This document shows, piece by piece, positions 9,792 through 56,840 of a stretch of 64,000 bases of DNA; position 1 is the first letter of the stretch; each line of letters begins with the position of its first letter. This DNA is from Nannocystaceae bacterium ST9 (lineage in GTDB: Bacteria; Myxococcota_A; Polyangia; Nannocystales; Nannocystaceae), in the NCBI GenBank assembly GCA_048320885.1, contig JBLWFJ010000001.1, positions 5,825,697 through 5,889,696 on the forward strand. Reading direction: 5' to 3'. The translations under genes and the position numbers were made by a program. A model generated the notes under the pieces. The model was not told the DNA's origin. It saw only the letters and a program-made list of their open reading frames with translations, and made no database searches.

Positions 9792-11201
9792 TCAGGCTCG
9801 CGAGCGTCGCCGCCGAGCCAACCCGAGCAGCCCGAACAACCCCGCGAGCAGGCCCGCGCCGGTCGGCGTCGGCTCCGTGGTCGCGCAGCCCTTCGCGGTC
9901 GCGCCCGGCTTCTCGTCGCTGCCGCGATAGATCCCGTCGCCACCACCCTCGCCGCCGGAGCCACCGCCCTCGCCGGCCGAGCTGCCGCCACCTTCGTCTC
10001 CGTCGCCGCCGACCGAGCTCGCGCCGCCCTCGTCGTCGCCCTCGCCCCCGTCACCATCGCCGCCGGCGGTGCCGAACTTCTCTTCGCGCTTCTTCTGCTG
10101 GTCGGCCTTGTACTTGATGTAGCTCTCCGGCAGGTCGGGCAGGGTCTGGAGCATCCGCGGGCGGACGTCGGACAGCTTCTTCCACGCGCCCGGGCTCGGG
10201 ACCGCGCCGCCGCCGGCCGGCTTCTGCACGCCGAGGATGTAGAGCGCTCGCCGGTTGCGGACCTCGTCGACGCTGTCGCCGGTCTCGACCGCCAGGCCGC
10301 GCTCGCCCATGCCGGCGTAGTAGATCTCGCACCACGCCCCCTTGTCGAAGAAGTACTTGGCGATCGCCTTGGCCCGATCTTCGGACAGCTTCTGGTTGTC
10401 GCCGCCGTTGCCGACCGTGTCGGTGTAGCCGACGATGTAGAGCTGGGCCGAGAGGTTGCCGTTGACGGCCAGGTTGGCCTTGTCGAGCCCGGCGAGCTCG
10501 TGGACCAGGACCGCGAACGCCTCGGCGACCTTGGGCTCTTCGTCGGGCTTGATGATCGCCTTGCCCGAGTCGAAGTTGACCTCGGTGTGGGGGATGTCGA
10601 CCGCCCAGGGCACCCGCGTGTCGGTGTACGAGAACCCGGTGTCGTCCTCGCCGGTGACCTTGATCATGAACACCTCGCGGTCGGTGTTCCACTTCATCTC
10701 GAAGGTCTGGCCGGCCTCGATCACCTCGTCGGTGATCAGCTTCTCGGTGATCAGGTCGCCGTCGGTGTCGAAGACCTGCAAGGTCCGCGAGCTGATCGTG
10801 AAGGGCGTCTTGTACTTGATGGTCTGGCGATCGACGATGTCGGTGCGATCGCTGAGCAGCTCGAACGCGCCTTTCTTGCCGCCGGCGATCGGCTTTTGGA
10901 CTTCGAAGCTGCCGTTGGTGAACGCCTCGTTGGCCTCGATCTCGATGTCGTACGAGACCTGGCGGTCCTTCTGCTTCCAGGTGATCTTGGTCGGCTTGTT
11001 GGCCTTGATGCTGACGGTTTTGCTCAGCTCGCTGCCGTCCGAGCCGGTGATCTTGACCTTGACTTCGGCGAGCGGCTCGTCGGAGGTCAGCTCGACCCAG
11101 GCGGTGCCGCTCTCGTCGGTCTGGCCGGAGTATTGCCAGCCGAAGCCGCCGAGCATCATGAAGAGGGCGAGCAGCGGGGCGGTGAGGGATGCGATGGCCA
11201 T
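9792..11201 (-). CDS. OmpA/MotB-domain surface protein with Gly/Asp-rich linker and MYXO-CTERM sorting tail
   Basis: N-terminal signal MAIASLTAPLLALFMMLGG. OmpA_C-like peptidoglycan-binding motif YIVGYTDTVGNGGDNQKLSEDRAKAIAKYFFDKG. G/D/E-rich low-complexity linker. C-terminus GCATTEPTPTGAGLLAGLFGLLGLARRRRSRA matches the MYXO-CTERM pattern (Cys, then hydrophobic stretch, then Arg-rich tail). Confidence 0.8.
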   Translation of the reverse strand: MAIASLTAPLLALFMMLGGFGWQYSGQTDESGTAWVELTSDEPLAEVKVKITGSDGSELSKTVSIKANKPTKITWKQKDRQVSYDIEIEANEAFTNGSFEVQKPIAGGKKGAFELLSDRTDIVDRQTIKYKTPFTISSRTLQVFDTDGDLITEKLITDEVIEAGQTFEMKWNTDREVFMIKVTGEDDTGFSYTDTRVPWAVDIPHTEVNFDSGKAIIKPDEEPKVAEAFAVLVHELAGLDKANLAVNGNLSAQLYIVGYTDTVGNGGDNQKLSEDRAKAIAKYFFDKGAWCEIYYAGMGERGLAVETGDSVDEVRNRRALYILGVQKPAGGGAVPSPGAWKKLSDVRPRMLQTLPDLPESYIKYKADQQKKREEKFGTAGGDGDGGEGDDEGGASSVGGDGDEGGGSSAGEGGGSGGEGGGDGIYRGSDEKPGATAKGCATTEPTPTGAGLLAGLFGLLGLARRRRSRA

Positions 11202-11276
11202 CGGGGTCTCCTGGTCGTACGCGCTTGGCGTAGCGGGGCGTCGGGGTCGGGGCGGTCGGGATTGTAGCGAACTCGG

Positions 11277-11642
11277 TCAGGTCTTCGCACGCTGATCGTG
11301 CCGGACCTCGATGATCGTGTGGATTCCGCCCCGAACCAGGAAGTCGCCCTCGACGACCATCCAGCGCGGATCGGTCGCGGCGACCAGATCATCGAGGATC
11401 TGGTTGGTGACCGCCTCGTGGAACGCCCCCTGATCGCGGTAGGTCCACAGGTAGAGCTTGAGCGCCTTGAGCTCGACGCAGCGCTGATCGGGGCAGTAGC
11501 GGATCCGAATGGTCGCGAAGTCCGGCTGGCCCGTGAGCGGGCACAGGCAGGTGAACTCCGGGCACTCGAAGCGGATCTCGAAGTCCCGCTCGGGCCTGGG
11601 GTTGGGGAAGGTCTCGAGCGCTCGGGAAGGCTGGGTCGCCAC
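11277..11642 (-). CDS. queF: NADPH-dependent 7-cyano-7-deazaguanine (preQ0) reductase QueF, type I
   Basis: [24 protein letters not shown]...ELKALKLYL motifs; 121 aa. Confidence 0.85.
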
Positions 11643-11805
11643 CCGAGGCGTGTGCCCGGCGACCGTCGAGTCGTCAAGGGTCCGGCCGGCCCCGCGGCGG
11701 GTTCGCGGCAGGCGATCTGGCCTGAAAAGTCGATTGCATGCCGGAATTCACCGCGTTTGCGCCTTGACCGCTTCATCGAGGCGGACGTAGCGTGATTGCG
11801 CGCCG

Positions 11806-14800
11806 ATGAGCATCTCACCTCCCTCTCCGGTCGATCGCCTGCATCCGGTGCTCTTCGAGCTGTGGCTCCCCAACGGGCCGAACATCACCTGGCAGGTGGT
11901 GCGCCTGCACGGGATCGAGGCCCTCTCGACGCCCTACGAGTTCGTGCTCGATCTGATCACCGACGATCCCTTGGCCAGCTACGAGGAGATGCTCGGGGCT
12001 GACGCCGAGCTGCTGCTCGATCGCAACGGCGTGGTGCGGGTCGTCTACGGGATCATCGACGAGGTCCAGGCGGTGATGTCGGCCGAGTCGCGGGTCGCGA
12101 GCGCGGGGCTGGTCGTGCGCGCGCGGATCGTTCCGGCGTTCAAGCTGCTCGATCAGCAGCTCGACACCCGCTTCTTCGCCGGCCAGACCGTGGTCGAGAT
12201 CGTCCGCGATGTCCTGACCGCCGCGCTCGAGCCCTACCAGCGGACGATCGACGCGAGCGCGAGCGTCAAGGGCACCTACGCCAAGCGCGACTACTGCGTG
12301 CAGTTCCGCGAGACGACCTTCGCGTTCTGCAGCCGGATCCTCGAGGAAGAGGGCATCAGCTACCAGTTCGTCAACGACGACGACGAGCACAAGGAGAAGC
12401 TGGTCCTGATCGACAGCAACGCGGATTACCGCGAGGTCGAGCTGCTGGTCGCCGACGCGATCCCGATCGTGCTCAGCCGGCCCGACGAGCTCGACCGCGA
12501 GTCGATCCAGGCGTTCGACTGGCGAGACGCGCGGACGCCCAACCGCGTGCTGACCCGCGGCTACAACTTCAAGGTCGCGACCACGCCCGACGAGGGCAGC
12601 GCGGAGCGGACCGACCCGCACAACCCCGGCACCCGCGAGCAGTTCCTCGACGACGATCGCCGGCAGATCGTCGACGATCCGATCAACGATCCCGAGGCCC
12701 AGAGCTTCACCGGGGCCGACCTCGCCCAGCGCGTGCCGCTGGCCGAGCGGCTGCTGCAACTGCACACCCAGGAGTCGGCGATCGGCCAGGGCCGGGCCAA
12801 CGCGATCGGGTTCGGGCCCGGCCGGACCTTCACGCTCGGCGAGCACCCGCAGGCCTCGCTCGATCACCACCGCTTCTTGCTGACGCGGGTGGTCCACGAG
12901 GGCGCGATCGGGGGCAGCTCGGGCTCGCCCGAGCGCTCGTACGCCAACCGCTTCGACTGCGTCCCGGTCGAGCACGAGCATCGCCCGGCGCTGCGGACCG
13001 CCAAGCCGCGCGTGTACGGGATCCAGACCGGCGTGGTCGTCGGTCGGGCGCAAGACGAGATCTACACCGATCAATTCGGGCGGATTCGGGTCAAGTTCCA
13101 CCGCGATCGCCACAGCGGCAACGACGAGCAGGCCTCGTGCTGGATCCGCGTCGCCCAGGTCTGGGCCGGCTCGGGGTTCGGCGCGGTCGTGATCCCGCGG
13201 GTCGGCATGGAGGTCGTGGTGTCGTTCGTCGACGGCAACCCCGACTGCCCGCTGGTGACCGGCTGCGTCTACGACAGCCAGAACATGCCGCCCTATCCGC
13301 TGCCGGCGGAGATGACCAAGACCACGTTCAAGACCGCGTCGAGCCCGGGCGGCGAGGGGTTCAACGAGCTGCGCTTCGAGGACGCGCACGGGTCCGAGCA
13401 GGTGTTCATCCATGCCCAGCGGCGGATGGACGTGCGGGTCCGCGGCAGCCTCTACGAGACCTGCGGAGGCAGCCGCGAGGAGCGAGTCGGCTGGGAGCGC
13501 GGCGACGATCAGGGCGGCGACCACAACACGCTGGTCCACAAGGACGTCAACCATCACGTCAAGGAGATCCGCTACACCAAGGTCGAGAAGGAGCAGTACG
13601 AGACGGTCATGCTCGACCTGATCGAGGACTTCCAGACCAAGCACATGGTTCTGGTCGGCGAGGTCAGCCAGCTCAGCGCGCCCAAGGTCGTGGTCGAGGC
13701 CAGCGACAAGATCAGCCACAAGGCCGGGGCGATCCTGGTGACCGGCAGCTCGACGGTCGACATCAAGGGCGGCGGCAAGGTCGCGATCGAGAGCAACAAC
13801 GCGATCGAGATGAAGGTCGGCGGCAGCTTCATCTCGATCACGCCGGGCGGGATCGCGATCCAGGGCGTGTCGGTCCGGATCAACAGCGGCGGCGGGGTCG
13901 GTCCGGCCAGCGAGGGCGAGGCCGCGGTCTCGGTCGAGATGCTCGATCCGCTCGACGCGCTCGGGGCCGACGACGGCCAGATCCATCACGGTGGCGGCGG
14001 GGGTGGGGGAGGCGGCCGGACCCGCACGGGTCGCACGCTCGATCCTCATCACGCGCCGCCGATGCAGCCCCCGCCTCCGCCTCCGCCGGGCCACCCGACG
14101 GTCCAGCCCGACGGGACGCTGCGGCAGTTCCTGACCATCGAGTGGGTCGAGGTCGAGACCTGGTGCAGCGAGCCGGCGACCCTGCGCGGGACCACCCAGG
14201 GCTACACCGACGGCGACACCGAGTCGGCCGACGTCCGCAACACCAGCGACGGCGCGGTCCAGCGCGCGCAGACCCTGACGATCACCAGCAACGCGTACAG
14301 CCAGGCGTTCGACGTGGTCAACCTGCTGCCGCGCCGGGTCGGGGCCAACTTCGAGACCGAGCGGACGCTCGACGCGATCGCGGTCGGCCAGACCACGCCG
14401 ACGGCGATCCGCCTGCGCTTCATCCCGACCCTGACCTCGACCCACTGCACGATCAACAGCTCGCACTTCGACCTCTCGGTGACCAACTACGAGGCGCTGA
14501 TGGGCGGGACGATCAACTACGTGCCGGGGTGGATCCAGTTCATCATTCAGCTCGGCGCGACCGTGCCGGCCGGCACCGGCGGCAACTGTGGGGTCAACTT
14601 CGGGACCCCGACCGCCGGCAGCTTCAGCGGGACCGACTGGCGCTACGCCAAGCGCAGCACGACCACCGGCGGGCTGCTCTACTGGAACGGGACCGCGTGG
14701 ACGGCCGTGCCGGCGACCTGGTCGGATCCGGCCAACGTGCTGCTCTACCCGATCGCGATCTGGATCGAGGGCGGCACCAACCACACGCAGTTCGGGACCA

Positions 14801-15324
14801 CGGCCTGGCCCGAGGCGATCCCGGCCTGGGGCGCGACCGAGACCACGCTCGCGACCACCACGCTGGCGACCTGGACGACCAACATCAACGCGACTTGGAC
14901 TGGCAAGTTCGACCTCAAGCGGGTCGAGTGCCGAAGCACCGACGCGCAGTGCTGCCGCTACAAGACTCGCTGCAGCGTGACCTTCGTGCAGGTCGCGGTG
15001 AAGGGCAGCGGCATCGTGCTCGCGGCCAACAACGCCCGCTCGAACGCCGGCGTCTGGTCGCTCGGCGACACCCGGGCCGGCATGCCGCCGCACGAGTTCG
15101 GCCACCACCTCGGCAACCCCGACGAGTATGCCGGCGGCGTCGGCATCGACGCGAGCGTCAACACCGACGGCGCGACCGCGGGCATCGACCCCAACTCGAT
15201 CATGGGCGCCAACCTGAGCACTGTGAAGCGACGCCACTACAACACGATCTGCAAGCACCTGGCCGCGATGGTCAGCACGCAGTTCGGCCGGACCTACACC
15301 TACAACGCCGTGCCGGTCGTCTGA
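11806..15324 (+). CDS. vgrG: Type VI secretion spike protein VgrG (TssI) with glycine/proline-rich linker and C-terminal HExxH zinc-metallopeptidase-like effector domain (an evolved VgrG)
   Basis: The gp27/gp5 core is unmistakable: RVAQVWAGSGFGAVVIPRVGMEVVVSFVDGNPDCPLVTGCVYDSQNMPPYPLPAEMTKTTFKTASSPGGEGFNELRFEDAHGSEQVFIHAQRRMD. A beta-helix repeat region (ISHKAGAILVTGSSTVDIKGGGKVAIESNNAIEMKVGGSFISITPGGIAIQG) follows, then a G9/P8 linker. The C-terminal ~430 aa extension ends ...GMPPHEFGHHLGNPDEY...IDPNSIMGANL, i.e. HExxHxxGxxD followed by a Met-turn-like SIMG. Confidence 0.9.
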   Translation: MSISPPSPVDRLHPVLFELWLPNGPNITWQVVRLHGIEALSTPYEFVLDLITDDPLASYEEMLGADAELLLDRNGVVRVVYGIIDEVQAVMSAESRVASAGLVVRARIVPAFKLLDQQLDTRFFAGQTVVEIVRDVLTAALEPYQRTIDASASVKGTYAKRDYCVQFRETTFAFCSRILEEEGISYQFVNDDDEHKEKLVLIDSNADYREVELLVADAIPIVLSRPDELDRESIQAFDWRDARTPNRVLTRGYNFKVATTPDEGSAERTDPHNPGTREQFLDDDRRQIVDDPINDPEAQSFTGADLAQRVPLAERLLQLHTQESAIGQGRANAIGFGPGRTFTLGEHPQASLDHHRFLLTRVVHEGAIGGSSGSPERSYANRFDCVPVEHEHRPALRTAKPRVYGIQTGVVVGRAQDEIYTDQFGRIRVKFHRDRHSGNDEQASCWIRVAQVWAGSGFGAVVIPRVGMEVVVSFVDGNPDCPLVTGCVYDSQNMPPYPLPAEMTKTTFKTASSPGGEGFNELRFEDAHGSEQVFIHAQRRMDVRVRGSLYETCGGSREERVGWERGDDQGGDHNTLVHKDVNHHVKEIRYTKVEKEQYETVMLDLIEDFQTKHMVLVGEVSQLSAPKVVVEASDKISHKAGAILVTGSSTVDIKGGGKVAIESNNAIEMKVGGSFISITPGGIAIQGVSVRINSGGGVGPASEGEAAVSVEMLDPLDALGADDGQIHHGGGGGGGGGRTRTGRTLDPHHAPPMQPPPPPPPGHPTVQPDGTLRQFLTIEWVEVETWCSEPATLRGTTQGYTDGDTESADVRNTSDGAVQRAQTLTITSNAYSQAFDVVNLLPRRVGANFETERTLDAIAVGQTTPTAIRLRFIPTLTSTHCTINSSHFDLSVTNYEALMGGTINYVPGWIQFIIQLGATVPAGTGGNCGVNFGTPTAGSFSGTDWRYAKRSTTTGGLLYWNGTAWTAVPATWSDPANVLLYPIAIWIEGGTNHTQFGTTAWPEAIPAWGATETTLATTTLATWTTNINATWTGKFDLKRVECRSTDAQCCRYKTRCSVTFVQVAVKGSGIVLAANNARSNAGVWSLGDTRAGMPPHEFGHHLGNPDEYAGGVGIDASVNTDGATAGIDPNSIMGANLSTVKRRHYNTICKHLAAMVSTQFGRTYTYNAVPVV

Positions 15325-15340
15325 CCCGAGGAATTTTCGA

Positions 15341-16303
15341 ATGAGTGATCCGCAAGACGAAGCCTTTCGGCTCGACTTTCGTGTCCGCGGTGGCGAGCTG
15401 ATGGCCAGCCTGCCCGGACACTTCCAGACCACGATCGAGATCGCCGAGTACGGCACCTGGCTGCGCGTGCGCAGCGACGAGAAGCTCGCGATGCTGGTCT
15501 TGACCCGCCACAACGGCGACCTGGTCGAGCGGCCGGTCGGGCTGTTTCGCATGCGGCTCGACGATCGCCAGCTCGCCGAGCTGCGCGGCGCGGTCGAGTC
15601 GACCGGGTGGACCAAGCTGCCGAGGCCCTCGCGCGGCGACGTCACGGCCAGCCAGCTCTCGATCGACTACCTGCGCGGGGGCTTGCTGATCCGGCGCGAC
15701 TTCAACGCGCGCAGCCGCGAGTTCATCGTCGCGATCTGGCCGCTGATGGAGCAGCTCAACGCGCTGATGGGCACGCTGCTGACTCGGCCGGCCGGGGCGA
15801 TCGCGGTCGCGGTCGCGAGCGAGCCCGATCCCGACGACCCCGGTCGGCGCGTCTCGAAGTTGATCCTCTCGAACCCCGGCAGTTGGCCGGTCGTGCTGAC
15901 CGATCCACGCGTGGCCAAGCCGGCGCACGTCCAGCGCTCGCGCGCGCGGATCCTGGTCGCGCTCGCGCCCAGGGAGACGCCGGGGATGATGGCCGTGCCG
16001 CCGCGCTGGGTGAGCGTCGAGCTGCCTGCGCTGGCCGAGGGCGCGCCCGAGCTCCAGACGTTGCAAGCCGGCGGCAAGCTCGAGATCGCGGTGCCCTGGC
16101 AGGCGCCCGGTCCCGGGGCCTACGTGATGCAGGGCGTGTGGGACGACTACGCCGGACCGATCACGCCGGCCGACGATCATCTGCCGATCATGCCGCTGCG
16201 CGGCGACGACGAGCCGGCGCCGACCGGCGCGGTGTATCCCGTGCGCGGGGCCGCGTTCTCGGTCTACGCTTCGTTCGTGATCGAGCCCCCGAAGCAAAAA
16301 TGA
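15341..16303 (+). CDS. VgrG-island paralogous protein A (no signal peptide); candidate immunity or adaptor protein
   Basis: 320 aa; no recognisable known domain. ~45% identical over ~270 aa to the next ORF (shared blocks WLRVRSDE..LVLTRHNGD.VERPVG.FR, VVLTDPRV, YPVRGAAFS.YASF). Its stop overlaps the next start (ATGA). Confidence 0.6.
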   Translation: MSDPQDEAFRLDFRVRGGELMASLPGHFQTTIEIAEYGTWLRVRSDEKLAMLVLTRHNGDLVERPVGLFRMRLDDRQLAELRGAVESTGWTKLPRPSRGDVTASQLSIDYLRGGLLIRRDFNARSREFIVAIWPLMEQLNALMGTLLTRPAGAIAVAVASEPDPDDPGRRVSKLILSNPGSWPVVLTDPRVAKPAHVQRSRARILVALAPRETPGMMAVPPRWVSVELPALAEGAPELQTLQAGGKLEIAVPWQAPGPGAYVMQGVWDDYAGPITPADDHLPIMPLRGDDEPAPTGAVYPVRGAAFSVYASFVIEPPKQK

Positions 16304-17373
16304 CCGACGCCACCCGACGCGAGTTTCTGCTGGCCGGCCTCGGCGTGGTGGGTGTTTCGATCGGCTGTCGCTCGGAGGAGTCCGAGGCCCCGCCGGGATC
16401 GAGCAAGCGCCGAGCCGAGAGCGAGTCCCCGAGCGATACAGCCGTGAACGATCCAGCCGTGAACGATCCGCCCGCGTCGAACCAACTCGTGCGCTTCCGA
16501 CTCGACTTTCGCTCGGCCGGCGGCCACGTGATGGCCCAGGACGGCACGCAGGCGATCCACGAGTGGACGAGCTGGCTGCGGGTGCGCAGCGACGAGCGAG
16601 TGGCCGAGCTGGTGTTGACCCGGCACAACGGCGACATGGTCGAGCGCCCGGTCGGCCGCTTTCGCCAGACGCTCGACGACGCCGGGCTGCTCGCGCTCCA
16701 GCAGGCGATCGTCGCGACGAAGTGGGCCGAGCTGCCCGAGCCGCAGATCGGCGATCCGACCGCGAACTGGCTGACCTTCGAGTATGTCGCGGGCGAGACG
16801 GTGATCCGTCGCGAGTTCAGCGCGAGCGCCCAGGCGTTCATGACCGCGATCAGTCCCTTGCTGCTGGTGCTCAATGCGGCCATGAGCGCGCCGCTGGCCG
16901 GGCCGCTGGCCGCGATCGCGGTCGTGGCCGAGGCCGCGCGCGCCAAGCCGGGCAAGCCGGTGATCTTGACCATGCGCCTGCGCAACCTCGGGACCGAGCC
17001 GGTGGTGATCACCGATCCTCGCGTGCCGGCGAGCGGCGACGCGGGCCCACGGGCGCGGCTGCTGGTCGCCGCCAAGCCCGGCGAGATGCACATGCCCTCG
17101 TGGACCGCGATCGATCTCGACCCGCTGCCGGCCGGCTCGCCCGAGGTTCGGGTGCTCGAGGCCGGCGGCGAGCTCGAGCTCGCCACGAGCTGGACCCCGA
17201 CGCTGAAGGGCGCCTGCCTGCTGCAAGCGGTCTGGCAGGACTACGCCGGACCGATCCGTGCCGCGCCCGATCAGCTCGGCTTCTTCCCTCTGCCCGAGGC
17301 GGGCCCGAGCGCGGCGGGCCCCTATCCCGTGCGTGGGGCCGCGTTCTCGAGCTACGCGAGCTTCGATGCCTGA
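16300..17373 (+). CDS. VgrG-island paralogous protein B with Tat/lipoprotein-type signal; candidate periplasmic immunity protein
   Basis: ATG at 16300, in frame with the tail of track ORF 15607..17373. N-terminus MTDATRREFLLAGLGVVGVSIGC is a twin-arginine-like signal plus lipobox. A low-complexity linker with AVNDP x2 follows, then the same conserved body as paralog A. Confidence 0.6.
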   Translation: MTDATRREFLLAGLGVVGVSIGCRSEESEAPPGSSKRRAESESPSDTAVNDPAVNDPPASNQLVRFRLDFRSAGGHVMAQDGTQAIHEWTSWLRVRSDERVAELVLTRHNGDMVERPVGRFRQTLDDAGLLALQQAIVATKWAELPEPQIGDPTANWLTFEYVAGETVIRREFSASAQAFMTAISPLLLVLNAAMSAPLAGPLAAIAVVAEAARAKPGKPVILTMRLRNLGTEPVVITDPRVPASGDAGPRARLLVAAKPGEMHMPSWTAIDLDPLPAGSPEVRVLEAGGELELATSWTPTLKGACLLQAVWQDYAGPIRAAPDQLGFFPLPEAGPSAAGPYPVRGAAFSSYASFDA

Positions 17374-17409
17374 TAGGATGCCTGATGGGACGCGTGATAG
17401 GATGATCGC

Positions 17410-17700
17410 GTGAGCTTGGCGGCGAGGGTCACGGACGCGCACACCTGCCCGGCATGGTTTCCGCTGCCGCATGTCGGCGGGGTGATCACCGGGCCCGGGA
17501 TCCCGACCGTGTTGATCGGCAGCATGCCGGCGGCCGTGCAGGGCACGGTCTGCACCTGCGCCTTCGGTCCGCCCAACCCGATCGCGTCGGGCTCGACGAC
17601 CGTGCAGATCGGCAGCATGCCGGCGGCGCGCATGGGCGATCCGACCTCGCACGGCGGCAGCATCGTCGCGGGCTGTCCGACCGTGCTGATCGGTGGTTGA
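17410..17700 (+). CDS. PAAR-domain protein (T6SS spike tip cap), minimal form without toxin extension
   Basis: 96 aa, GTG start. Repeated PAAR motifs ...VLIGSMPAAVQGTVCTC... and ...VQIGSMPAARMGDPTSHGG... Confidence 0.85.
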   Translation: MSLAARVTDAHTCPAWFPLPHVGGVITGPGIPTVLIGSMPAAVQGTVCTCAFGPPNPIASGSTTVQIGSMPAARMGDPTSHGGSIVAGCPTVLIGG

Positions 17701-17703
17701 TCG

Positions 17704-18891
17704 GTGATCGAGCCGAGCGAGCTCGAGCGCCTGCTCGCGCAGGGCCGCGGCGCCGGCTGGCTCGCGGCGCGCGAGCTCGGCGAGCCGGCGATCGAGCTCG
17801 TGCTGCGCTGCGTGATCACGGATCCACGCTGGGATGGCCAGGTCGAGTCGCGCGACGCGTACTACGCCTCGCTCTTGCTCGCCCTTTCCGCGGATCCCCG
17901 GCCGATCGTCGACGCGTTGGTCGGCCGCGATCCCGGAGACGTCGCGCTGGCCCGCAACGTGCTGATCGAGCTGGCCTGGCGTGGCCACGCTGGCGCGCTG
18001 GCGGCCGTGGTCGAGCGCGTGCGTGCGGGCAGCGAGACCGCCGATGATCTGTGGCTGGCCTCCGATCTCGACGGGAGCTTCGCCGCGCGGGTCCACGCGC
18101 TCGCGGGGCGCACGATAGCGACGCATGAAGCCGCGCCCGTGCGCGCGCGCCCGCAGTTGGATCCCGAGCTCGGCATCGCCGAGCTGATCGCGATCGCGAC
18201 CGAGTCGACCGACACGTCGCGTTGGCACGCCGCCCGGCGCTTGGGCGAGCTCGACCAGCTCGACCATGCCGCGCTGATCGACGCCGCCGAGGCATACCTG
18301 CGATCGGAGTGTGGCGTGCCCTCGGGCCAGCGAAACCGACGCGGTGAGCATCTGCGCCGGGTCGGTTGGCTGCGCTACCTCGAGGCGCTCCCGGCCGCGC
18401 GGACGCTCCCGCTCGCCCGCGCGTGGGCCCGCGCCGAGTGGCCGCTGAGCCTCGCGGCCGACAAGCTCTTGGTTCGTCACGCCGAGCCCGAGGATCGCCC
18501 ACTGCTCGAGCAGCTCGGCGGCGAGGCCCTGGCCACGCTCGACCGCTACCGGCTCTGCTCGATGGTCGACGCGCTCGCTCGGCTCGCCGCGCCCGAGTCG
18601 ATCGAATTCCTGATCGCCGTCTACACCACGATCGACTACTCGTACGCCCGCGAGCGAGCCTGCGTCGCCCTGCTCGCGCACGCCGATCATCTCGCGGTCC
18701 GGCCCCTGCTGGTCGAGGCGCTGTGGGACTGCGAGGCCGGCACGCGCGAGGATGCGTGCGGGGCCGTCGATCCGCGCGCGAACGCGGCCCGCCTGCGCGA
18801 GCTCGCCGACGATCCCTGCGAGCGCCCCTCGGTCCGCGAGGCCGCCCGCTCGTGTGGCGCCGAGCCGTGCTGGGGTACAATCTCGCAGTGA
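17704..18891 (+). CDS. HEAT/ARM-like repeat protein of the VgrG-PAAR island; candidate T6SS effector, chaperone or immunity protein
   Basis: GTG start 3 nt after the PAAR stop. 395 aa Ala/Leu/Arg-rich helical repeats (...LLVEALWDCEAGTREDACGAVDPRANAARLRELADDPCERPSVREAARSC...). No catalytic motif recognised. Its stop overlaps the next start (GTGA). Confidence 0.5.
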   Translation: MIEPSELERLLAQGRGAGWLAARELGEPAIELVLRCVITDPRWDGQVESRDAYYASLLLALSADPRPIVDALVGRDPGDVALARNVLIELAWRGHAGALAAVVERVRAGSETADDLWLASDLDGSFAARVHALAGRTIATHEAAPVRARPQLDPELGIAELIAIATESTDTSRWHAARRLGELDQLDHAALIDAAEAYLRSECGVPSGQRNRRGEHLRRVGWLRYLEALPAARTLPLARAWARAEWPLSLAADKLLVRHAEPEDRPLLEQLGGEALATLDRYRLCSMVDALARLAAPESIEFLIAVYTTIDYSYARERACVALLAHADHLAVRPLLVEALWDCEAGTREDACGAVDPRANAARLRELADDPCERPSVREAARSCGAEPCWGTISQ

Positions 18892-20926
18892 GGCACGAGG
18901 CCATCGTCCGCCACATCGAAGCGGCCAGCCCAGAGCAGCTTCGGTTGCTCGCGCGGCTGGCCCTCGAGCTGGCGGGCTACCCGATCCCTCGCACGACCGA
19001 TGGCCCCTACGATGGAGGCATCGATCTGGTGGTCGAGACCGCTGCTGGCCGGGCCTGGCCGATGGCGGTGGCGGTGTCGGTCGAGAAAAACTGGCAGAGC
19101 AAGCTACGCAAGGACGTAGCCAAGGCCCGCCAGGATCCCAGCATCAAGAAGTTCTCTTCATCAGCTCGCGCCGGATCCCCGAGGGCACATTTCGGGCCGT
19201 CCAGCAGGAGCTCGAGGGCAGCTCGGGTCTCTCCGTCGATCGCCTCGATCAACAAGGGATCGCCGATCTCGTGATGGATGGCGAAGGCGCGTTGCCGAGG
19301 TTGCTGGACATTCTCGATCTGCCCACCTCCGACGGCCGAGTGCCCGCGACGCCGGAAGATCGCCGGCGGGATGCCATGTATGCGTATGCCTTTTTCGCGC
19401 CCGAGGTCCACGATTTCCGCAAGGCCATACGGGATCGCAGCCTCATCGTCGCGCTCGCGCAGGCGGGGGGCAGCGCCACCATTGGGGGTCTATGTGTCGA
19501 TGCGGCGCGGCTGCTCGGCATCGACGACAAAGACGCGATGAGCCTCCTGCACGACATCGACCGGCTTCGCCAGGTCGGTCGCATCCAAGGGCCCAATGGC
19601 ACGGTCGTGCTGGCCGCTGAAGAGCGCGAGACGATGGCAGCACTCGCGGCCTTGCGTCGGCGCGAGGAGGCAGCGCTGCGCGACCGACTCGAGGCCCACG
19701 TGGACAGCGCCGGGCTCGAGCCGCGCGAGGATGCGCTCGACGTGCTCTGGCAAGACCTCGGCCCGCTCTTGGCGCGACACATCGGCGCGCCCGAAGCCCT
19801 CGACCACCTTCGCTCGCGCGTGCGACGACTTCGGCGCGAGCTCGAGAGCCATGGCTTGCCCGCGGGTGAGCGCGGCAACCAATTCATCGCCGAAGCCATC
19901 GCGCTGGCGAGCGACTCCGAGCTAGGCAAGTCGTTGGCGACTGGCAGCGTCTATCAGGCGCTCGTGCGGCTCGACCGAAGCGCGCTGCTGCGGGCGCTCG
20001 ATGCTTCGTCGCTGGCGATCGTGGTCGACGCGTCGGTCGCGATACCGATGCTCTGTGCGCTCTTCCACGGAAGCGTGGAGCAGCGCTTCTTTCTCGTCGC
20101 CGAGGAATTTCACCGTCGGTCGCGACACGCAGGTGTCGCGCTGCAATTACCGGATGTCTGGCTGGAAGAGATGGCCTCGCACTTGCTCCGGGCGCCCGAC
20201 TATGAGCCATTCTTGGACGATCTGGATCTGCGTGATTCAGGCAATGCCTATGTTGCCTATTTCGTCGCATCACGGCGGGTCGACTTTGCCGACTACTTGG
20301 CTCAATTTGGATTGACGGAATCGCTCAGGCGTGACGTTCGCCCCGACACTCGACGTTCACTCGAGACCTTCTTGCGTCGTCAGCTCAGCCACTATGGGAT
20401 CGAGGTCGTCGCCACGGGCGGCGTTTCCAAACACCATCTCGAGCGAGCACAGCGAAGCTGGACATGGGCCTGTCACGATCTCGGTATCCTCGATCGCGCG
20501 ACGATCTTGGCCGAGCACGACGTCCGAGTGCTCGCATGGTCGTCTGCGAGTACCGAGCGGGATCCGAGCCGCGCACTCCTGATCGCCACTTGGGATCGCG
20601 CCATTCGTCGCGCGCATCCCGAGACGGACTCAGGTGGCGCGCTCGATCCGCTAGCGATCGGCGAGCTCCTGTCCTTCGTCGCGGGGGATCGTGCGCCCGC
20701 AATGACCGCTCGCTTTGCATCCTCGTGGCTCGGCGAGGCCGAGGCCGAGCGCGGCGCCAGGATCCTCGACGAGCTGGTCCACATCGAGCACGAGCACCTG
20801 TCGGACGCCCAGCTGGTCCGGCAAGCGCGAGCCTTCAAGCAGACCTACGTGCGCGAGCGAGAAGACCAGCCGAGCGCGAAGGCCCTGGGGCGGGCCTGGG
20901 AGACCTTCAAGCGCAAGCCAGCATGA
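18888..20926 (+). pseudogene. Mrr-like PD-(D/E)xK restriction-endonuclease-domain protein with a large C-terminal domain of unknown function; reading frame interrupted by a -1 frameshift near 19140-19150
   Basis: GTG 18888 opens frame 0: VRHEAIVRHIEAASPEQLRLLARLALELAGYPIPRTTDGPYDGGIDLVVETAAGRAWPMAVAVSVEKNWQSKLRKDVAKARQDPSIKK. This is the Mrr_cat-type D..D(GGIDL)..E.K core. The sensible continuation VLFISSRRIPEGTFRAVQQELEGSSGLSVDRLDQQGIADLV... and the remaining ~590 aa are in frame 2 (track ORF 18752..20926). Both frames are open across 18888-19274, so the exact shift site is undetermined. Confidence 0.55.
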
Positions 20927-21032
20927 CTACGGATGGGTGATCGAGCTCGAGCAGCGGCTGGCCGAGCACGTGTGAGGTCTGTCGTCGCGCGCGCCCTCGC
21001 GGGTCCGAGGGGCGTGTCGTAAGTGTCGGCCG

Positions 21033-23342
21033 ATGTTGATCCATCGCTTCGACGAGGTCGCCCGTGCTCGCCCCGACGACGTCGCGCTGGTGTCCTCGCG
21101 CGGCTCGCTGACCTACGCGCAATTGCGTGAGCGCGCGGCCGGCCTGGCTCGCGAGCTGCGGGCGAGGGGAGTCGGCCGCGAGACCCCGGTCGGCGTCGGG
21201 GTGCCGCGCTCGATCGAGTCGATGATCGCGGTGCTCGGCGTGCTGTGGGCCGGCGGGGCCTATGTCCCGATCGACCCGGTCTACCCGCCCGAGCGCCAGC
21301 GATCGATCGCCGCCGACGCCCAGATCGCCGTGCTGGTGATCGCCAGCGAGCTGGCCGGCGCGCCCGCGTGGGCGTCGTCGATCGTCGATCTCTCGCGGCT
21401 TCTCGATTCGACCCCCGGCTCGATCGCCGAGCCAGTCGAGCTGCCCGAGACCGCGCCCGAGGACCTGCTCAACATCCTGTTCACCTCGGGCAGCACCGGC
21501 CGCCCCAAGGGCGTGCTCGGGACCCACGCGGCCATGCTCAATCGGCTCGCGTGGGCCTGGTCGAGCTTCCCCTTCGCCGCCGGCGAGGTGCTCGGTCACC
21601 GCAGCTCGCTCAACTTCGTCGACGCCGGGCCCGAGATGTTCACCGCGCTGCTGCGCGGGGTCCCGACCGCGATCGTGCTGCACGACGAGCAGGCCGACCT
21701 CGGGCGCTTCGTCGCCGCGCTCGAGCAGCATCGCGTCTCGCGGCTGACCGTCGTGCCCTCGATCCTCGCCGCGCTGCTGCGCAGCGTGCCCGAGCTCGCC
21801 GCCCGGCTGGCTGCGCTGCGCCTGTGGATCACCAGCGGCGAAGAGCTCACGCTGCCGCTGCTGCGCCGGTTTCGCGAGGTGTTGCCGGGCGCGACGCTGC
21901 TCAACATCTACGGCTCGACCGAGGTCACCGGCGACGTCACCTGTGCGGTGTTCGAACCCGGCGCGCCGCTGCCGAGCGAGCGCGTGCCGATCGGCAAGCC
22001 GATGGCCGACGCCGAGCTGCTGGTCGTCGATCGCGAGGGCCACGTGCTGCCCGAGGGCGAGACCGGCGAGCTGTTCGCGGCCGGGCCGGTGCTCGCTCGC
22101 GGCTATCACCAGCGCCCGCTCGAGGAGGCGGTTCGCTTTCCTCGTCACCCGACCCGGCCGAGCGAGCGCTGCTTTCGAACCGGCGATCTGGTCCGCCGCG
22201 AGCCCGATGGATCGTTCCTGTTCCTCGGGCGCGTCGACAACCTGGTCAAGATCCTCGGCGTGCGGGTCGAGCTCGAAGAGATCGAGCGTTGCCTGCGAGC
22301 CGCCTGCCCGGCGTTGCGCGACATCGCGGCCGTGCTCGCCGAGGGCGAGCGCCTGGTCGCGTTCGTGACCCCCGAGGACGCCGACGTCGAGGCCCTGCGC
22401 GCGGCGGCGGCTCGACTCTTGCCCGCGGTCATGAACCCGGCCCGCTACCTGCCGATCGCCGCGCTCCCGCTGCTGCCCAACGGCAAGGTCGATCGCGGCG
22501 TGCTGGCGGCCCGCGTTCGGATCACGCCGCGCGACATCCCGGCCGAGCGGCGCCCGCAGACCGCCAGCGAGCGGCGGGTCGCCGCGCTCTGGGCCGGCCT
22601 GCTGCGCCGCGACGACATCGCCCGCGACGACAGCTTCGCCCGGCTCGGCGGCGACTCGCTGACCCTCGCCGAGCTGCTCGCCACGCTCGCCGATCCGCGC
22701 GTCGATCTCGGACTCGCGCGCGACGGCACGCTCGAGCAGATCGGGCTCGCGCTCGACGGCGTGACCACGAGCGAGCGCGCGAACGAGACCGCACTGGCGA
22801 TCACCCTCACGCCGCTCGGCGAGCCGGCGGCCAGCGACGACGAGGTCGTGGCGATGTTCGTCGAGGCCTCGGCCGACCCCGCGCTGTGTGCCAACACCGA
22901 GCTGCCCGGCAACATGGACCGCGAGCGCGCGCGCGACTACTGCCGCAACAGCGACGGCGTGGTCATTCGGCTCGAGGGCGTGCCGGTCGGCGCGGGCCTG
23001 ATCCAGCACCACCCCAACCTCGGCGAGGGTGTCGAGGTCCCGGCCGGCGCGGTCCAGCTCGACGAGTGGCTGCTGCCGCGCTGGCGCGGGCGAGGGATCC
23101 TCGGCGAGGCGGGAGCGTGGCCGCAGCTCTCGGCGTGGATGGCCGAGCGCTTCGACACCGAGGTCAGCGTGGTCTGGGCCGACCATGTCGCGATGCTGAC
23201 GATCCTGCGCGCGCGCGGGTACACCCGGGTCGGTCGGAGCTACTGGAAGAGCAGGCCGGAGGGGGATGGGACCGAGGGGTGGTGCGAGGTGTGGATCTAC
23301 GATCTTCGGCCGCACCGACGTTCGCAGATGATCCTTCGATGA
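21033..23342 (+). CDS. Stand-alone NRPS-like protein: adenylation domain, peptidyl-carrier (thiolation) domain and C-terminal GNAT-type N-acyltransferase-like domain
   Basis: Adenylation core motifs LNILFTSGSTGRPKGV (A3), FRTGDLV (A7), GRVDNLVKILGVRVELEEIE (A8), LPNGKVDR (A10). Carrier motif FARLGGDSLTLAEL. Last ~200 aa GNAT-like (...GVVIRLEGVPVGAGLIQHHP...WRGRGILGEAG...RARGYTRVG). No condensation or thioesterase domain. Confidence 0.75.
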   Translation: MLIHRFDEVARARPDDVALVSSRGSLTYAQLRERAAGLARELRARGVGRETPVGVGVPRSIESMIAVLGVLWAGGAYVPIDPVYPPERQRSIAADAQIAVLVIASELAGAPAWASSIVDLSRLLDSTPGSIAEPVELPETAPEDLLNILFTSGSTGRPKGVLGTHAAMLNRLAWAWSSFPFAAGEVLGHRSSLNFVDAGPEMFTALLRGVPTAIVLHDEQADLGRFVAALEQHRVSRLTVVPSILAALLRSVPELAARLAALRLWITSGEELTLPLLRRFREVLPGATLLNIYGSTEVTGDVTCAVFEPGAPLPSERVPIGKPMADAELLVVDREGHVLPEGETGELFAAGPVLARGYHQRPLEEAVRFPRHPTRPSERCFRTGDLVRREPDGSFLFLGRVDNLVKILGVRVELEEIERCLRAACPALRDIAAVLAEGERLVAFVTPEDADVEALRAAAARLLPAVMNPARYLPIAALPLLPNGKVDRGVLAARVRITPRDIPAERRPQTASERRVAALWAGLLRRDDIARDDSFARLGGDSLTLAELLATLADPRVDLGLARDGTLEQIGLALDGVTTSERANETALAITLTPLGEPAASDDEVVAMFVEASADPALCANTELPGNMDRERARDYCRNSDGVVIRLEGVPVGAGLIQHHPNLGEGVEVPAGAVQLDEWLLPRWRGRGILGEAGAWPQLSAWMAERFDTEVSVVWADHVAMLTILRARGYTRVGRSYWKSRPEGDGTEGWCEVWIYDLRPHRRSQMILR

Positions 23343-45701: not shown

Positions 45702-47192
45702 TCAGTCGTCCGCGTCCGCGATCGCAGCACCCTCGAGCTTGGCGCTTCGTCGGTCGGGCACGTCGGGGTCGCCCTTGTGGATCCGAACCAGCGTGCCGGG
45801 GTCGCTGACGTGCTCGTTGGCGATCAACCACCCCGCCGGCAGGGTCGGCGTCGAGCGATCGAAGAGAAACTTGGCGTCGTGCGCGGACAGGTTGATGCAG
45901 CCGTGACTGGTCCGGTAGCCGAAGCGGTCGTGCCAGAACGCGCCGTGCAGCGCGAAGCGGCCGTCGAAGTACATCGTCCACGGCACCGCGTCGACCCAGT
46001 AGGGCTCGGGCTCGCTCGGCAGGCTCGCCATCTTGCCGTAGGCCCGCTTGGTGATGATTCGGTAGAGCCCGGTCGGCGTCGAGTAGCCCGGCTTGCCCGA
46101 GGCGATCAGCGTCGCGAAGATCGCTCGGTCCTCGTGCCAGAGCGTGAGGACCTGCTGCTCGAGATCGACGTCGATCAGCAACTGTCCGGCGAGCACCGGA
46201 TCGGGCGGAGCCCGCGGCCGCCACAGCCGGACGTGCGCGGCGGGGATCCAGCCTTCGGCCTCGCCGGGGACCTGGGCCGGCACGCGGATCCACTCGGCGC
46301 GATCGCTGCCCTTCTGGCGCTCGTCGACGACGAGCAGCTCGGCGTGATACGCGAGCGGCCGCAGCTCGGACTCGGGATCGGGCTGCGCGTACACGCCCGT
46401 CTTGCGGTTGATCACCCAAGCCAGCACGCGATCGTCGGGCACCGGCGCGGCCTCGAGATCGCGACCGGCGAACTCGCTGGGCTCGAAGGTTCGCATCTGG
46501 TCGCCGGGGACCACTCGACCACGCACGTCGATCAGCACGGAGCTGCCTGCGCTGCGGGCTCGCCGAACGAACGCGTAGGTCCCATAGGCGGCCAGCCAAT
46601 CGACCGGATCGGCGCCCGAACGCAGCGCGCTCAGGTGGCGATAGACCGGCAGCTTGGGCGTCGAGAGGTCTTCGTGGCGGACGTGTCGGGCGTAGAGAAA
46701 GGGCAGCAGCTTGTGCTTGGGCAGCGCCGGCAGCAGGTGCGGCTTGGCGTGCTCGTCGAGCTCGGTGTGTTTGCTGCACACCCACGCGGACTCGCCGACC
46801 TGCGCCCAGGGCCGCGAGCAACCATCGTCGTTCACGCCCTCGTGGGTCGCGTAGACGTGGAAGACTTCGCGCATCTCGATCCGCCCGCGCAGCGGCGACG
46901 CGACGTGCGGCTCGCTGAACACCGGCCGCGGCAGGCTGGCGCGATAGATCGCGATCGGCTCGGGCAGGGTCGAGGCCGGCGTGTAGGGCGTGGCCGACAC
47001 GCGCGGGGCGGGGCGCTCGGCGATCGCGGTCGCGACCTCGGCGTGCGTCGCTTCGTGCTCGATCGGATCCGGACGGCCCGCCACCGCGACCTCGGTCGCC
47101 GGCGGGACTCCGGGCGCCGCTCTGGGTGGTTCTTCGGCGGCGGTGCGACAGGCCGTCAGCACCAGGGCGAGGGGCAAGAGGCGCGCGAGCAT
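45702..47192 (-). CDS. L,D-transpeptidase (YkuD/ErfK family) lipoprotein
   Basis: ATG 47192 gives MLARLLPLALVLTAC (lipobox). C-terminal YkuD domain with catalytic ...YRTSHGCINLSAHDAKFLF... The upstream part of track ORF 45702..48074 is antisense to moxR. Confidence 0.8.
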   Translation of the reverse strand: MLARLLPLALVLTACRTAAEEPPRAAPGVPPATEVAVAGRPDPIEHEATHAEVATAIAERPAPRVSATPYTPASTLPEPIAIYRASLPRPVFSEPHVASPLRGRIEMREVFHVYATHEGVNDDGCSRPWAQVGESAWVCSKHTELDEHAKPHLLPALPKHKLLPFLYARHVRHEDLSTPKLPVYRHLSALRSGADPVDWLAAYGTYAFVRRARSAGSSVLIDVRGRVVPGDQMRTFEPSEFAGRDLEAAPVPDDRVLAWVINRKTGVYAQPDPESELRPLAYHAELLVVDERQKGSDRAEWIRVPAQVPGEAEGWIPAAHVRLWRPRAPPDPVLAGQLLIDVDLEQQVLTLWHEDRAIFATLIASGKPGYSTPTGLYRIITKRAYGKMASLPSEPEPYWVDAVPWTMYFDGRFALHGAFWHDRFGYRTSHGCINLSAHDAKFLFDRSTPTLPAGWLIANEHVSDPGTLVRIHKGDPDVPDRRSAKLEGAAIADADD

Positions 47193-47366
47193 CTCGGCGT
47201 CCTTATGCCACAGCTCGGCGAGGGCGTCGTGGAAGCGACCAAAGCCTCGCTCGGCGCGGGCCTTGGCCGAGCGAGCGCAGCGCCGAAGCTCTCGTGCGTG
47301 TCCGACTCGGAGCGGGCTCGCCCCGCGCGTGCTCCAGGAACACCGTCCTGTACAATGCCAGAGCCC

Positions 47367-48197
47367 ATGCAGCGCATCTCCAGCAGTGACCGGTACATCG
47401 TCTCCGACGAGCTCGCCAAGGCCGTCGACGTCGCCATCGCGATTGGCCGTCCGCTGCTGCTCAAGGGTGAGCCGGGGACCGGCAAGACCCTGCTCGCGGT
47501 CGACCTCGCCAAGCAGCTCGGCATGCCGCTGATCCGCTGGCAGGTCAAGTCGACGACCAAGGCGGTCGAGGGCCTCTACCACTACGACACCGTCCGCCGG
47601 CTGCACGACAGCCGCTTCGGCGACGGCAACGTCGCCGACATCGCCAAGTACATCGAGCTCGGTCCGCTCGGGCAAGCCTTCGAAGCCGAGCAGCGGATGG
47701 TCGTGCTGATCGACGAGATCGACAAGGCCGACCTCGAGTTCCCCAATGATCTGCTCCACGAGATCGACGCGATGAGCTTCACGATCCCCGAGACCGGGCG
47801 AGTCGTGACCGCCCGCCAGCGGCCGATCCTGGTGATCACCAGCAACAACGAAAAAGAGCTGCCCGACGCGTTCCTGCGCCGCTGCGTGTTCCATTGGATC
47901 GCGTTCCCCGAGCGCGAGCTGATGGCCCGGATCGTCGCCGTCCACCACCCCGACGTCGAGGACAAGCTGCTGGCCGGCGCGCTCGAGGCCTTCTATCGCC
48001 TGCGCCGGGTCGAGGGCCTGCGCAAGCCGCCGAGCACCAGCGAGCTGATCGACTGGATCGCCGCGCTCCGGCACGGCGCGATCGATCCGGCCAAGCTGCT
48101 CGGCGCCGGGCTGCCCTTCCTCGGCGTGCTGCTCAAGAAGGAGCAGGACGTCGCGACCGCCGAGCGCACGGCCACGCCGGGACGCGGGAGGGCCTGA
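47367..48197 (+). CDS. MoxR-family AAA+ ATPase (CoxD-like)
   Basis: ATG 47367, in frame inside track ORF 45636..48197. Walker A LLLKGEPGTGKTLLA; Walker B VVLIDEIDKAD; ...ITSNNEKELPDAFLRRC... sensor/arginine finger. Directly followed by a VWA gene. Confidence 0.85.
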   Translation: MQRISSSDRYIVSDELAKAVDVAIAIGRPLLLKGEPGTGKTLLAVDLAKQLGMPLIRWQVKSTTKAVEGLYHYDTVRRLHDSRFGDGNVADIAKYIELGPLGQAFEAEQRMVVLIDEIDKADLEFPNDLLHEIDAMSFTIPETGRVVTARQRPILVITSNNEKELPDAFLRRCVFHWIAFPERELMARIVAVHHPDVEDKLLAGALEAFYRLRRVEGLRKPPSTSELIDWIAALRHGAIDPAKLLGAGLPFLGVLLKKEQDVATAERTATPGRGRA

Positions 48198-48199
48198 GC

Positions 48200-56381: not shown

Positions 56382-56783
56382 TCAGCGATCGGCCAGCCAG
56401 AGCAGCAGCGAGCTGTCGCTCTTGCTGCGGTTGCAAGGACCGCACGCCGGGACCAGGTTCTCGCGTGGACCACCGCCGCGCGAGCGCGGGATCAGGTGGT
56501 CGCGCGTGCGCGATTGCTTGGTCAGTCGGGCGTTGCAGTACACGCACAGGACCGGCTCGACGTTCCAGACGAAGTAGCTGTACTCGCTCGCGAACACGGG
56601 ATCGAGCTGACCCGCGACGGTGTCCTCGATCGTCAGCTGCTTGTGCCGCGCGATCTCGCGGAAGCGGGCGATTCGTCCGCCGCGGCGGCCATCCTTGCGG
56701 ATCTGCCGCTTGTACAGATACCACTGAGCCGTGCCGCGCTCGGGCAGCCCGAACGCGGCGTTGCGTGAGTATGGGTCGGTCAT
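56382..56783 (-). CDS. HNH endonuclease (133 aa) immediately downstream of the tRNA array
   Basis: ATG 56783 (MTDPYSRN...), internal to track ORF 56382..56936. CVYCNARLT...DHLIPRSRGG...NLVPACGPCNRSK is a classical HNH/zinc-ribbon motif. Confidence 0.8.
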   Translation of the reverse strand: MTDPYSRNAAFGLPERGTAQWYLYKRQIRKDGRRGGRIARFREIARHKQLTIEDTVAGQLDPVFASEYSYFVWNVEPVLCVYCNARLTKQSRTRDHLIPRSRGGGPRENLVPACGPCNRSKSDSSLLLWLADR

Positions 56784-56840
56784 CGCATCCTCCCTTCGCC
56801 AATGGCCGAAGGAACTCGTGACGACGCGGATGGATGCGAG

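Follow-up and report, generated by a model that had tools for sequence, protein, structure and literature searches.

Introduction

What does the C-terminal extension of a VgrG spike protein do, in which compartment of a target cell would it act, and which neighbouring genes could protect the cell that makes it? These questions are raised by a locus of Nannocystaceae bacterium ST9 (Myxococcota), contained in a stretch of 64,000 nucleotides of the 6.98-Mb contig JBLWFJ010000001.1 (GenBank assembly GCA_048320885.1, positions 5,825,697 to 5,889,696), which is here called the window and is numbered from its first letter. Between positions 11806 and 18891 of the forward strand, five tightly packed genes run in the same direction: vgrG, two partner genes (g2 and g3), a PAAR gene, and g5 (Table 1). 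The reading that we consider probable is that this island is an auxiliary type VI secretion system (T6SS) effector operon, consisting of a vgrG-toxin fusion, a signal-less immunity paralog, a second paralog predicted to be a lipoprotein exported by twin-arginine translocation (Tat), a PAAR protein, and a HEAT-like accessory, where the toxin would be a zinc endopeptidase acting on the cell envelope.

The VgrG core and its linker

The open reading frame (ORF) encodes a genuine VgrG (TssI) spike protein. Pfam recognizes Phage_GPD (PF05954; 180.8 bits, E = 4.6e-53), Phage_base_V (PF04717; 50.8 bits, E = 2.2e-13) and Gp5_trimer_C (PF22178; 73.6 bits, E = 1.8e-20), while the NCBIfam models TIGR03361 and TIGR01646 score 444 bits (cut-off 186) and 303 bits (cut-off 122), respectively, in agreement with the gp27/gp5 core that a preliminary description of this DNA had recognized. 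The same description reported a G9/P8 linker after the core; the run of nine glycines is present, while the prolines are seven in a row rather than eight. Beyond the glycine run the protein continues for 435 amino acids (aa), and beyond the proline run for 411, so the length of about 430 aa proposed for the extension holds, but the extension is a three-domain module with a catalytic part of about 170 aa rather than one peptidase-like domain. With a folded C-terminal part of 405 aa that follows the G9/P7 linker downstream of the gp5 helix, the protein has the layout of an evolved VgrG, with toxicity being predicted.

The linker layout, NSGGG...ADDG followed by poly-glycine, a basic stretch and (H/R)xAPPxxPPPP, is repeated in 15 of 15 other VgrG fusions carrying the module, and the junction is kept in fusions from four phyla although the identity of their cores is low. 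It is likely to be a recombination junction at which toxin domains are swapped on VgrGs; evolved VgrGs in general may use it for recombination or flexibility, and it is possibly a processing site.

The C-terminal module as a probable divergent metzincin-like peptidase

The module comprises VgrG residues 768-1172, where the addition of 767 converts module numbering to VgrG numbering. Its first two domains are modelled as immunoglobulin (Ig)-like beta-sandwiches, and the third contains the predicted zinc-binding motif. We aligned the module with two sets of homologues, one of 67 full-length sequences and one of 83 sequences, which share 33-59% identity with the window module (33-54% for the set of 67). 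Invariant in both alignments are H329, E330, H333, D339, E340, Y341, M366, and G367 (module numbering), while D354, G355, K374, R376, and H377 are additionally invariant among the 67, and G1103 (VgrG numbering) is conserved at 90% or more in both. Because the H, E, H, D, E, and Y of HExxHxxGxPDEY and the methionine of SIMG are invariant throughout, the HExxH sequence is not a chance occurrence, and the arrangement of HExxHxxGxxD with SIMG noted in the preliminary description is well founded. Four cysteines are likewise invariant in the 67 full-length homologues, C20, C275, C282, and C283 (VgrG C787, C1042, C1049, and C1050), and an extracytoplasmic active form would therefore fit.

Both structure models reached a predicted local distance difference test score (pLDDT) of 95.7; for the AlphaFold2 model of the module built with the 67-sequence alignment, the predicted template modelling score (pTM) was 0.92. 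The modelled order of elements in the catalytic domain is a long helix A, beta-strands, an active-site helix bearing HEFGH, a loop with the conserved methionine, and a C-terminal helix. This matches the layout of the metzincin fold (an N-terminal helix with a beta-sheet, an active-site helix, and a C-terminal helix), with M1133 placed along the chain after the third ligand and before the C-terminal helix. The extended zinc motif of the metzincin clan MA(M), HExxHxxGxx(H/D), is present in its aspartate variant. The preliminary description had proposed structure prediction with a Foldseek search; it gave this confident model with metzincin-like order, although the catalytic domain had no significant match in the PDB.

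Profile comparisons of the same region, also proposed there, gave weak motif matches to peptidase families M6 and M7 below threshold, and no family threshold was passed. Searches of the module against Pfam, NCBIfam, and PDB sequences returned no match above threshold. The only signal covers about 25 residues of the zinc motif and is to Peptidase_M6/InhA (E of about 0.01), with PF05547 at 15.3 bits (cut-off 22) and TIGR03296 at 16 bits (cut-off 110.8). A profile search of the PDB gave motif-level matches alone, to InhA (M6) and snapalysin (M7). Weak Peptidase_M6 matches occur in 46 of the 67 members and weak M7 matches in 10, and a truncated VgrG-fused relative (P0106) lies narrowly above the M6 threshold. 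Membership in M6 or M7 was rejected, as curated thresholds were missed and the alignment is confined to the motif. Judged from sequence and model together, the module peptidase is a divergent metzincin-like family with a predicted aspartate as third zinc ligand and no Pfam or NCBIfam model, and the preliminary proposal, in which a metzincin-like peptidase is covalently joined to an evolved VgrG, is supported to that extent.

A different view takes the module for a binding or adhesin domain without catalysis, or for an inactive enzyme in which HExxH is a relic. Two of the three module domains are Ig-like beta-sandwiches and the structural matches of the catalytic domain are weak, as this view would predict; however, all of the metzincin catalytic residues are invariant in 83 homologues, the most distant of which share about 42% identity across the catalytic domain, and this is unlike a relic; and we regard the view as highly improbable.

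Distribution and delivery formats of the module

A database search recovered 93 clear homologues of the module (E from 1e-231 to 1e-44), and an exhaustive profile search recovered 114 clusters (at 50% identity) at E < 1e-30 and 600 at E < 1e-3. We also scanned genomes, one per species, and compared the loci by tblastn with the window proteins, which gave 40 module loci, of which 36 are full-length. These occur in Myxococcota, Acidobacteriota, Planctomycetota, Nitrospirota, and Verrucomicrobiota. The preliminary description was right in taking the host for a myxobacterium, but the module is found in several phyla and is not confined to VgrG.

In 15 loci the module is fused to a VgrG core (L001-L008, L011, L021, L022, L024, and L029-L031), in hosts from Nannocystaceae, Enhygromyxa, Plesiocystis, Nitrospirales, Phycisphaerales, and a proteobacterial metagenome-assembled genome (MAG); among the database homologues, P0099, P0102, P0114, and P0117 are full VgrG fusions by Pfam. 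Hosts of modules without such a fusion include Bryobacterales, Solibacteraceae, Acidoferrum, Verrucomicrobiaceae, Chthoniobacterales, Ignavibacteria, Myxococcaceae, and Polyangiaceae. Three of the non-fused loci (L012-L014) have a separate vgrG gene in the vicinity, in P0074 the module is fused to a Tox-PAAR-like domain (E = 1e-38), and DUF4123 T6SS adaptor genes adjoin standalone module genes. VgrG fusion, PAAR-like fusion, and adaptor-adjacent cargo together mean that all three known T6SS loading routes are used. Signal peptides are absent from the standalone and other non-VgrG forms; at their N-termini, standalone relatives carry PG_binding_1, PG_binding_3, OmpA, or LysM domains, and Gly-zipper domains occur in 20 of 67 homologues.

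The identities of core and module to those of the window are discordant: L005 shares 66% in the module and 37% in the core, while L008 shares 43% and 53%, respectively, which indicates swapping of the module between VgrGs. Read from sequence, the module is a swappable cassette, predicted to be toxic, that is carried on unrelated VgrGs, on a PAAR-like domain, or as a standalone protein beside DUF4123.

A second, diverged VgrG-metzincin-partner locus was observed in L043 (14392-18979), 3 kb beyond the first, and the MAGs that contain L001 and L002 also contain L030 and L031, whose modules share 32-34% identity with that of the window. Such second loci suggest that these strains may hold two versions of the weapon that do not cross-react. 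Separately, the catalytic-core region alone (profile positions of about 300-380) was seen in very large proteins (P0195, 5534 aa; P0213, 2443 aa; P0220, 2071 aa), in some such proteins several times over, as well as in L037-L040 and in proteins of Chloroflexia, Eremiobacterota, and Kapaibacteria. These occurrences point to further uses of the metzincin-like core beyond the T6SS.

The partner family and its probable role in immunity

The genes directly downstream of vgrG, g2 and g3, are paralogs (48% identical, E = 1e-76); they had been noted in the preliminary description, and they proved to be real genes, a main part of the system, and the best immunity candidates. They belong to a family of proteins of about 300 aa, here aligned from 32 sequences, which had no match in Pfam, NCBIfam, or PADLOC and none in a profile search of the PDB, and a database-wide profile search returned unannotated hypothetical proteins alone. 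Downstream of the module, 31 of 36 full-length loci encode a partner homologue, irrespective of the delivery format; the two genes adjoin in most of these loci, seven have a gap of 0.4-1 kb between them, and the same arrangement is seen in metagenomic contigs. In L027/L045, four partner paralogs, 78-100% identical, go with a single toxin gene and are interspersed with DUF4123 genes and transposases, while in L046 three tandem partner paralogs follow the toxin gene. The transposases of L045 and L046 are of the rve, DDE_Tnp_ISAZ013, ISL3, and Y2_Tnp types and the arrays alternate with DUF4123 adaptor genes, so that each locus looks like an actively rearranging immunity/adaptor island.

The partners could instead be chaperones, adaptors, or co-effectors, with a protease that targets prey or eukaryotic proteins during predation and thus requires no self-protection. 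g2 does have a common position of adaptors, directly after vgrG, and has no export signal, and the partner family gave no match to a known immunity family. However, three to four diverged paralogs for each toxin gene are typical of immunity genes and not of chaperones, and separate DUF4123 adaptors are already present in the array loci. In addition, many partners are predicted lipoproteins and would thus reside outside the cytoplasm where loading occurs, and the module-partner pair is also found in non-predatory phyla. We therefore consider this explanation improbable. The arrays, along with the conserved adjacency, make the partners candidates for immunity, and it is probable from sequence that the family of g2 and g3 consists of immunity proteins.

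Most partners carry a signal or lipobox sequence. The N-terminus of g3, MTDATRREFLLAGLGVVGVSIGC, contains a Tat-like TRREFLL motif and a lipobox-like cysteine after SIG, and the corresponding proteins of L001, L003, and L004 share this conserved N-terminus. The NCBI annotation of g3 (P0263) is a 304-aa form that starts downstream of it; because the omitted N-terminus is conserved in these three loci, the public start codon is probably wrong and hides the export signal. By contrast, g2 and its orthologues in L001 and L003 have no signal peptide, and a search for an upstream start that would give g2 one found none. g3 is thus probably a Tat-exported lipoprotein that serves as a periplasmic immunity protein, and g2 is probably a cytoplasmic immunity protein or neutralizing paralog.

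Proposed mechanism and compartment of action

In the reading of the island as an envelope-directed effector operon, the VgrG trimer would carry three protease copies, each bent back along the spike by way of its flexible linker, and the PAAR protein would cap the spike tip. Firing would deliver the protease into a neighbouring Gram-negative cell, where, as a zinc endopeptidase, it would attack peptidoglycan peptides or else proteins and lipoproteins of the cell envelope, by analogy with the VgrG2b and Tpe1 toxins compared below, whose toxicity is periplasmic. The targets named in the preliminary description, peptide stems of peptidoglycan or proteins of the periplasm, are thus still plausible ones. 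Periplasm-anchored g3 would block toxin arriving from sister cells, whereas g2 could neutralize the enzyme while it is still tethered to the spike inside the producer, before firing, or any toxin that reaches the cytoplasm. An envelope substrate is suggested by the peptidoglycan- and envelope-binding fusions among the relatives and by the invariant cysteines.

Several observations weigh against this account. Signal-less partners, which include g2 and those of Enhygromyxa/Plesiocystis-type loci, do not fit a purely periplasmic toxin-immunity pair. About 45 further ORFs scanned with Pfam across the window include no T6SS core gene; this agrees with what the preliminary description had reported and supports its auxiliary vgrG-PAAR effector module away from the core cluster, but it also means that a functional core cluster is not seen here. 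PG_binding_1 is also the fold of the matrix metalloproteinase (MMP) prodomain, and for this reason the PG_binding_1 fusions are weak evidence for a peptidoglycan substrate. Lastly, the characterised metallopeptidase VgrG, VgrG2b, showed no peptidoglycan hydrolase activity and possibly acts on lipoproteins (Wood et al., 2019; PMC6899460).

The signal-less partners also bear on a second explanation, in which the toxin acts in the target cytoplasm or on both sides of the inner membrane, perhaps on peptidoglycan precursor peptides as a substrate that both compartments contain. Immunity would then rest mainly on the signal-less partner, with the lipoprotein copy as a secondary adaptation. A signal-less partner is the sole copy in eight VgrG-fused loci (L008, L011, L021, L022, L024, and L029-L031), and signal-less and lipoprotein paralogs are kept together in the window, L001, L003, and L044. 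Nevertheless, most partners of other phyla have a lipobox or signal peptide, the four invariant cysteines suggest disulfide bonds and these are not made in the cytoplasm, and relatives of the module have the peptidoglycan- or envelope-binding fusions described above, while VgrG2b itself is toxic in the periplasm only (PMC6899460). On balance, we find action in the cytoplasm or on both sides rather unlikely.

The paired paralogs allow a bolder version, in which the locus represents a new, phylum-spanning T6SS toxin-immunity family, whose metzincin-fold peptidase has a substrate on both sides of the inner membrane and whose immunity operates in two compartments. A substrate present on both sides, for instance peptidoglycan stem peptides, which occur in precursors and in the mature wall, would account for pairing a cytoplasmic with a Tat-exported lipoprotein paralog. 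We know of no description of paired cytoplasmic and exported immunity paralogs for T6SS effectors, and we put this version forward as an unlikely, speculative one.

Gene order and window context

The window has a G+C content of about 70%, which fills raw ORF lists with artefacts, and reading frames were for this reason fixed by third-position GC (GC3), which is about 0.95 in the vgrG frame. An ORF of 280 aa at 16563-17405 was rejected as an off-frame artefact, being rich in arginine, alanine, and glycine and in the wrong GC3 frame; the true gene there is g3. The exact proteins are listed by NCBI under Nannocystaceae bacterium ST9, with the spike labelled as "Vgr family protein" and its neighbours as hypothetical, while the PAAR gene is labelled as encoding a PAAR domain-containing protein. 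This gene starts 2086 nucleotides past the vgrG stop on the same strand and matches PF05488 with 78.4 bits (cut-off 27; E = 4.9e-22), which confirms the 96-aa PAAR protein placed about 2 kb downstream in the preliminary description.

Table 1. Features of the vgrG island, in window coordinates
Feature	Positions	Strand	Description	Evidence
vgrG	11806-15324	+	1172 aa; spike core, linker, and C-terminal module (predicted toxin)	ORF, translation, GC3, TIGR03361; NCBI MFV8753690.1
VgrG core domains	11917-13617	+	Phage_GPD, residues 38-366; gp5 OB (oligonucleotide/oligosaccharide-binding) fold, 420-489; gp5 C-terminal trimerisation helix, 506-604	
Linker	13990-14088	+	Gly9 (residues 729-737), basic stretch RTRTGR, HHAPPMQ, Pro7 (residues 755-761)	
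Module domain 1	14107-14556	+	Module residues 1-150; beta-sandwich with invariant Cys20 (VgrG C787)	Model
Module domain 2	14599-14820	+	Module residues ~165-238; small beta domain	Model secondary structure
Catalytic domain	14821-15321	+	Module residues 239-405 (VgrG 1006-1172), ~170 aa; predicted divergent metzincin-like fold	
Predicted zinc-binding motif HEFGHHLGNPDEY	15091-15129	+	H1096, E1097, H1100, G1103, D1106, E1107, Y1108; HEFGH at residues 1096-1100 (15091-15105), HEFGHHLGNPD at residues 1096-1106	
SIMG, candidate Met-turn	15196-15207	+	Residues 1131-1134; M1133 and G1134 invariant	
g2	15341-16303	+	320 aa; 16-nucleotide gap from vgrG	Translation
g3	16300-17373	+	357 aa; ATG overlaps g2 stop (ATGA)	
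PAAR	17410-17700	+	96 aa; minimal tip cap	PF05488
g5	17704-18891	+	395 aa; 3-nucleotide gap from PAAR; HEAT-repeat-like	Weak HEAT_2 match

The L001 locus has the same flanks as the window, with an OmpA-like gene and QueF upstream, and an AMP-binding gene directly after PAAR. In L043 and L044, PAAR is followed by a g5 homologue and then by the AMP-binding gene. Since g5 is present in L043 and L044 and absent from L001, the conserved unit is vgrG-partner(s)-PAAR, and g5 is a variable accessory of the island; the island end given earlier, at 18891, is thus a true gene end, but that of a variable gene. Homologues of g5 (n = 27) include some from Actinobacteria, which to our knowledge lack a T6SS, and g5 may be an adaptor, an immunity protein, or an unrelated passenger. 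A recent acquisition of the island was considered and rejected, as its GC content equals that of the flanks and the OmpA-QueF ... AMP-binding synteny is common to L001, L043, and L044. A promoter and terminator scan of 11200-21200 gave counts equal to the shuffled expectation and is therefore uninformative.

Between g5 and the AMP-binding gene lies a stretch (18888-20926, forward strand) that is missing from the same position in L001, L043, and L044 and was found in 0 of 40 genome loci. It reads as a single gene with a 1-nucleotide frameshift near 19149-19151 (aagaag|gttctc). The upstream frame, from a GTG at 18888 that overlaps the g5 stop (GTGA), contains an Mrr-like 'DGGIDLV...EK' nuclease motif, and the downstream frame (19151-20926) has a helical region and a PIN-like 'IVVDASVAIP' stretch. 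The conceptually repaired protein matches Pfam Mrr_cat at an E of only 0.04, and the GC3 of the stretch is below that of the adjoining genes.

The other scanned ORFs of the window are housekeeping genes, including QueF, an OmpA-family protein, DnaK, HrcA, kinases, and M16 peptidases. A lone HNH endonuclease ORF (56385-57023, reverse strand; PF14279, E = 1.4e-8), the only one to pass the GC3 filter within a 2-kb stretch, and an 859-aa protein with a C-terminal YkuD L,D-transpeptidase domain (45705-48281, reverse strand) are not linked to the vgrG island.

Significance and comparison with known systems

The preliminary description overstated the novelty of a zinc peptidase on a VgrG. Metallopeptidase toxins with an adjacent immunity gene have already been characterised in VgrG2b-PA0261 of Pseudomonas aeruginosa and Tpe1-Tpi1 of Acinetobacter baylyi (Wood et al., 2019; PMC6899460). 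The novelty lies in the protease family, which is metzincin-like and has no Pfam model, together with its own partner family. VgrG-fused metallopeptidase toxins have so far been known from one family, the gluzincin VgrG2b/Tpe1; the ST9 locus indicates that there is a second protease family, unrelated to the first, which has the roughly 114 clusters given above and an immunity-like family of its own, and the retrieved loci come from environmental phyla. The confidently modelled catalytic domain is available for biochemical work, and the pairing of cytoplasmic and lipoprotein paralogs, an unusual arrangement, offers a direct route to asking in which compartment the toxin acts. Literature searches on VgrG with metzincins and on myxobacterial evolved VgrG metalloproteases retrieved no prior description of the module family.

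The architecture of the ST9 system resembles that of VgrG2b in that an evolved VgrG, encoded away from the core T6SS cluster, has a C-terminal HExxH metallopeptidase (here a predicted toxin), and the adjacent downstream gene in both systems has an exported product, which is a lipoprotein in some species. As with Tpe1, the toxin family also occurs as an effector without VgrG. The peptidases themselves differ. The C-terminal domain of VgrG2b is a thermolysin-like gluzincin whose third zinc ligand, Glu983, lies on a later helix (PMC6899460), whereas the ST9 domain is metzincin-like, with the aspartate of HExxHxxGxxD in the corresponding role and a candidate Met-turn. The ST9 module also has two additional beta-sandwich domains, its partners form a family unrelated to anything annotated, and two partner paralogs rather than one are present in the operon. 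When all PDB chains were searched with the module, both as a single sequence and as a profile, no VgrG protein was among the entries listed at E <= 10. Membership in the VgrG2b/Tpe1 family was accordingly rejected, given this lack of sequence homology in the PDB searches and the aspartate in place of glutamate as third ligand.

The nearest parallels to the zinc site are found in snapalysin (MEROPS M7) and InhA (M6), which represent the two metzincin families with an aspartate as third zinc ligand in HExxHxxGxPD(E/H)Y, and the same motif is present in the ST9 module. Among T6SS effectors, the N-terminal domain of BtaeB from Bacteroides fragilis (PDB 9jdh, 9jg8) was counted among the closest known systems. 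VgrG-3 of Vibrio cholerae is an evolved VgrG with a lysozyme-like glycoside hydrolase domain that acts in the periplasm and is encoded next to its immunity gene. The ST9 family likewise includes members with peptidoglycan-binding domains, but its predicted activity is that of a peptidase, not a glycoside hydrolase.

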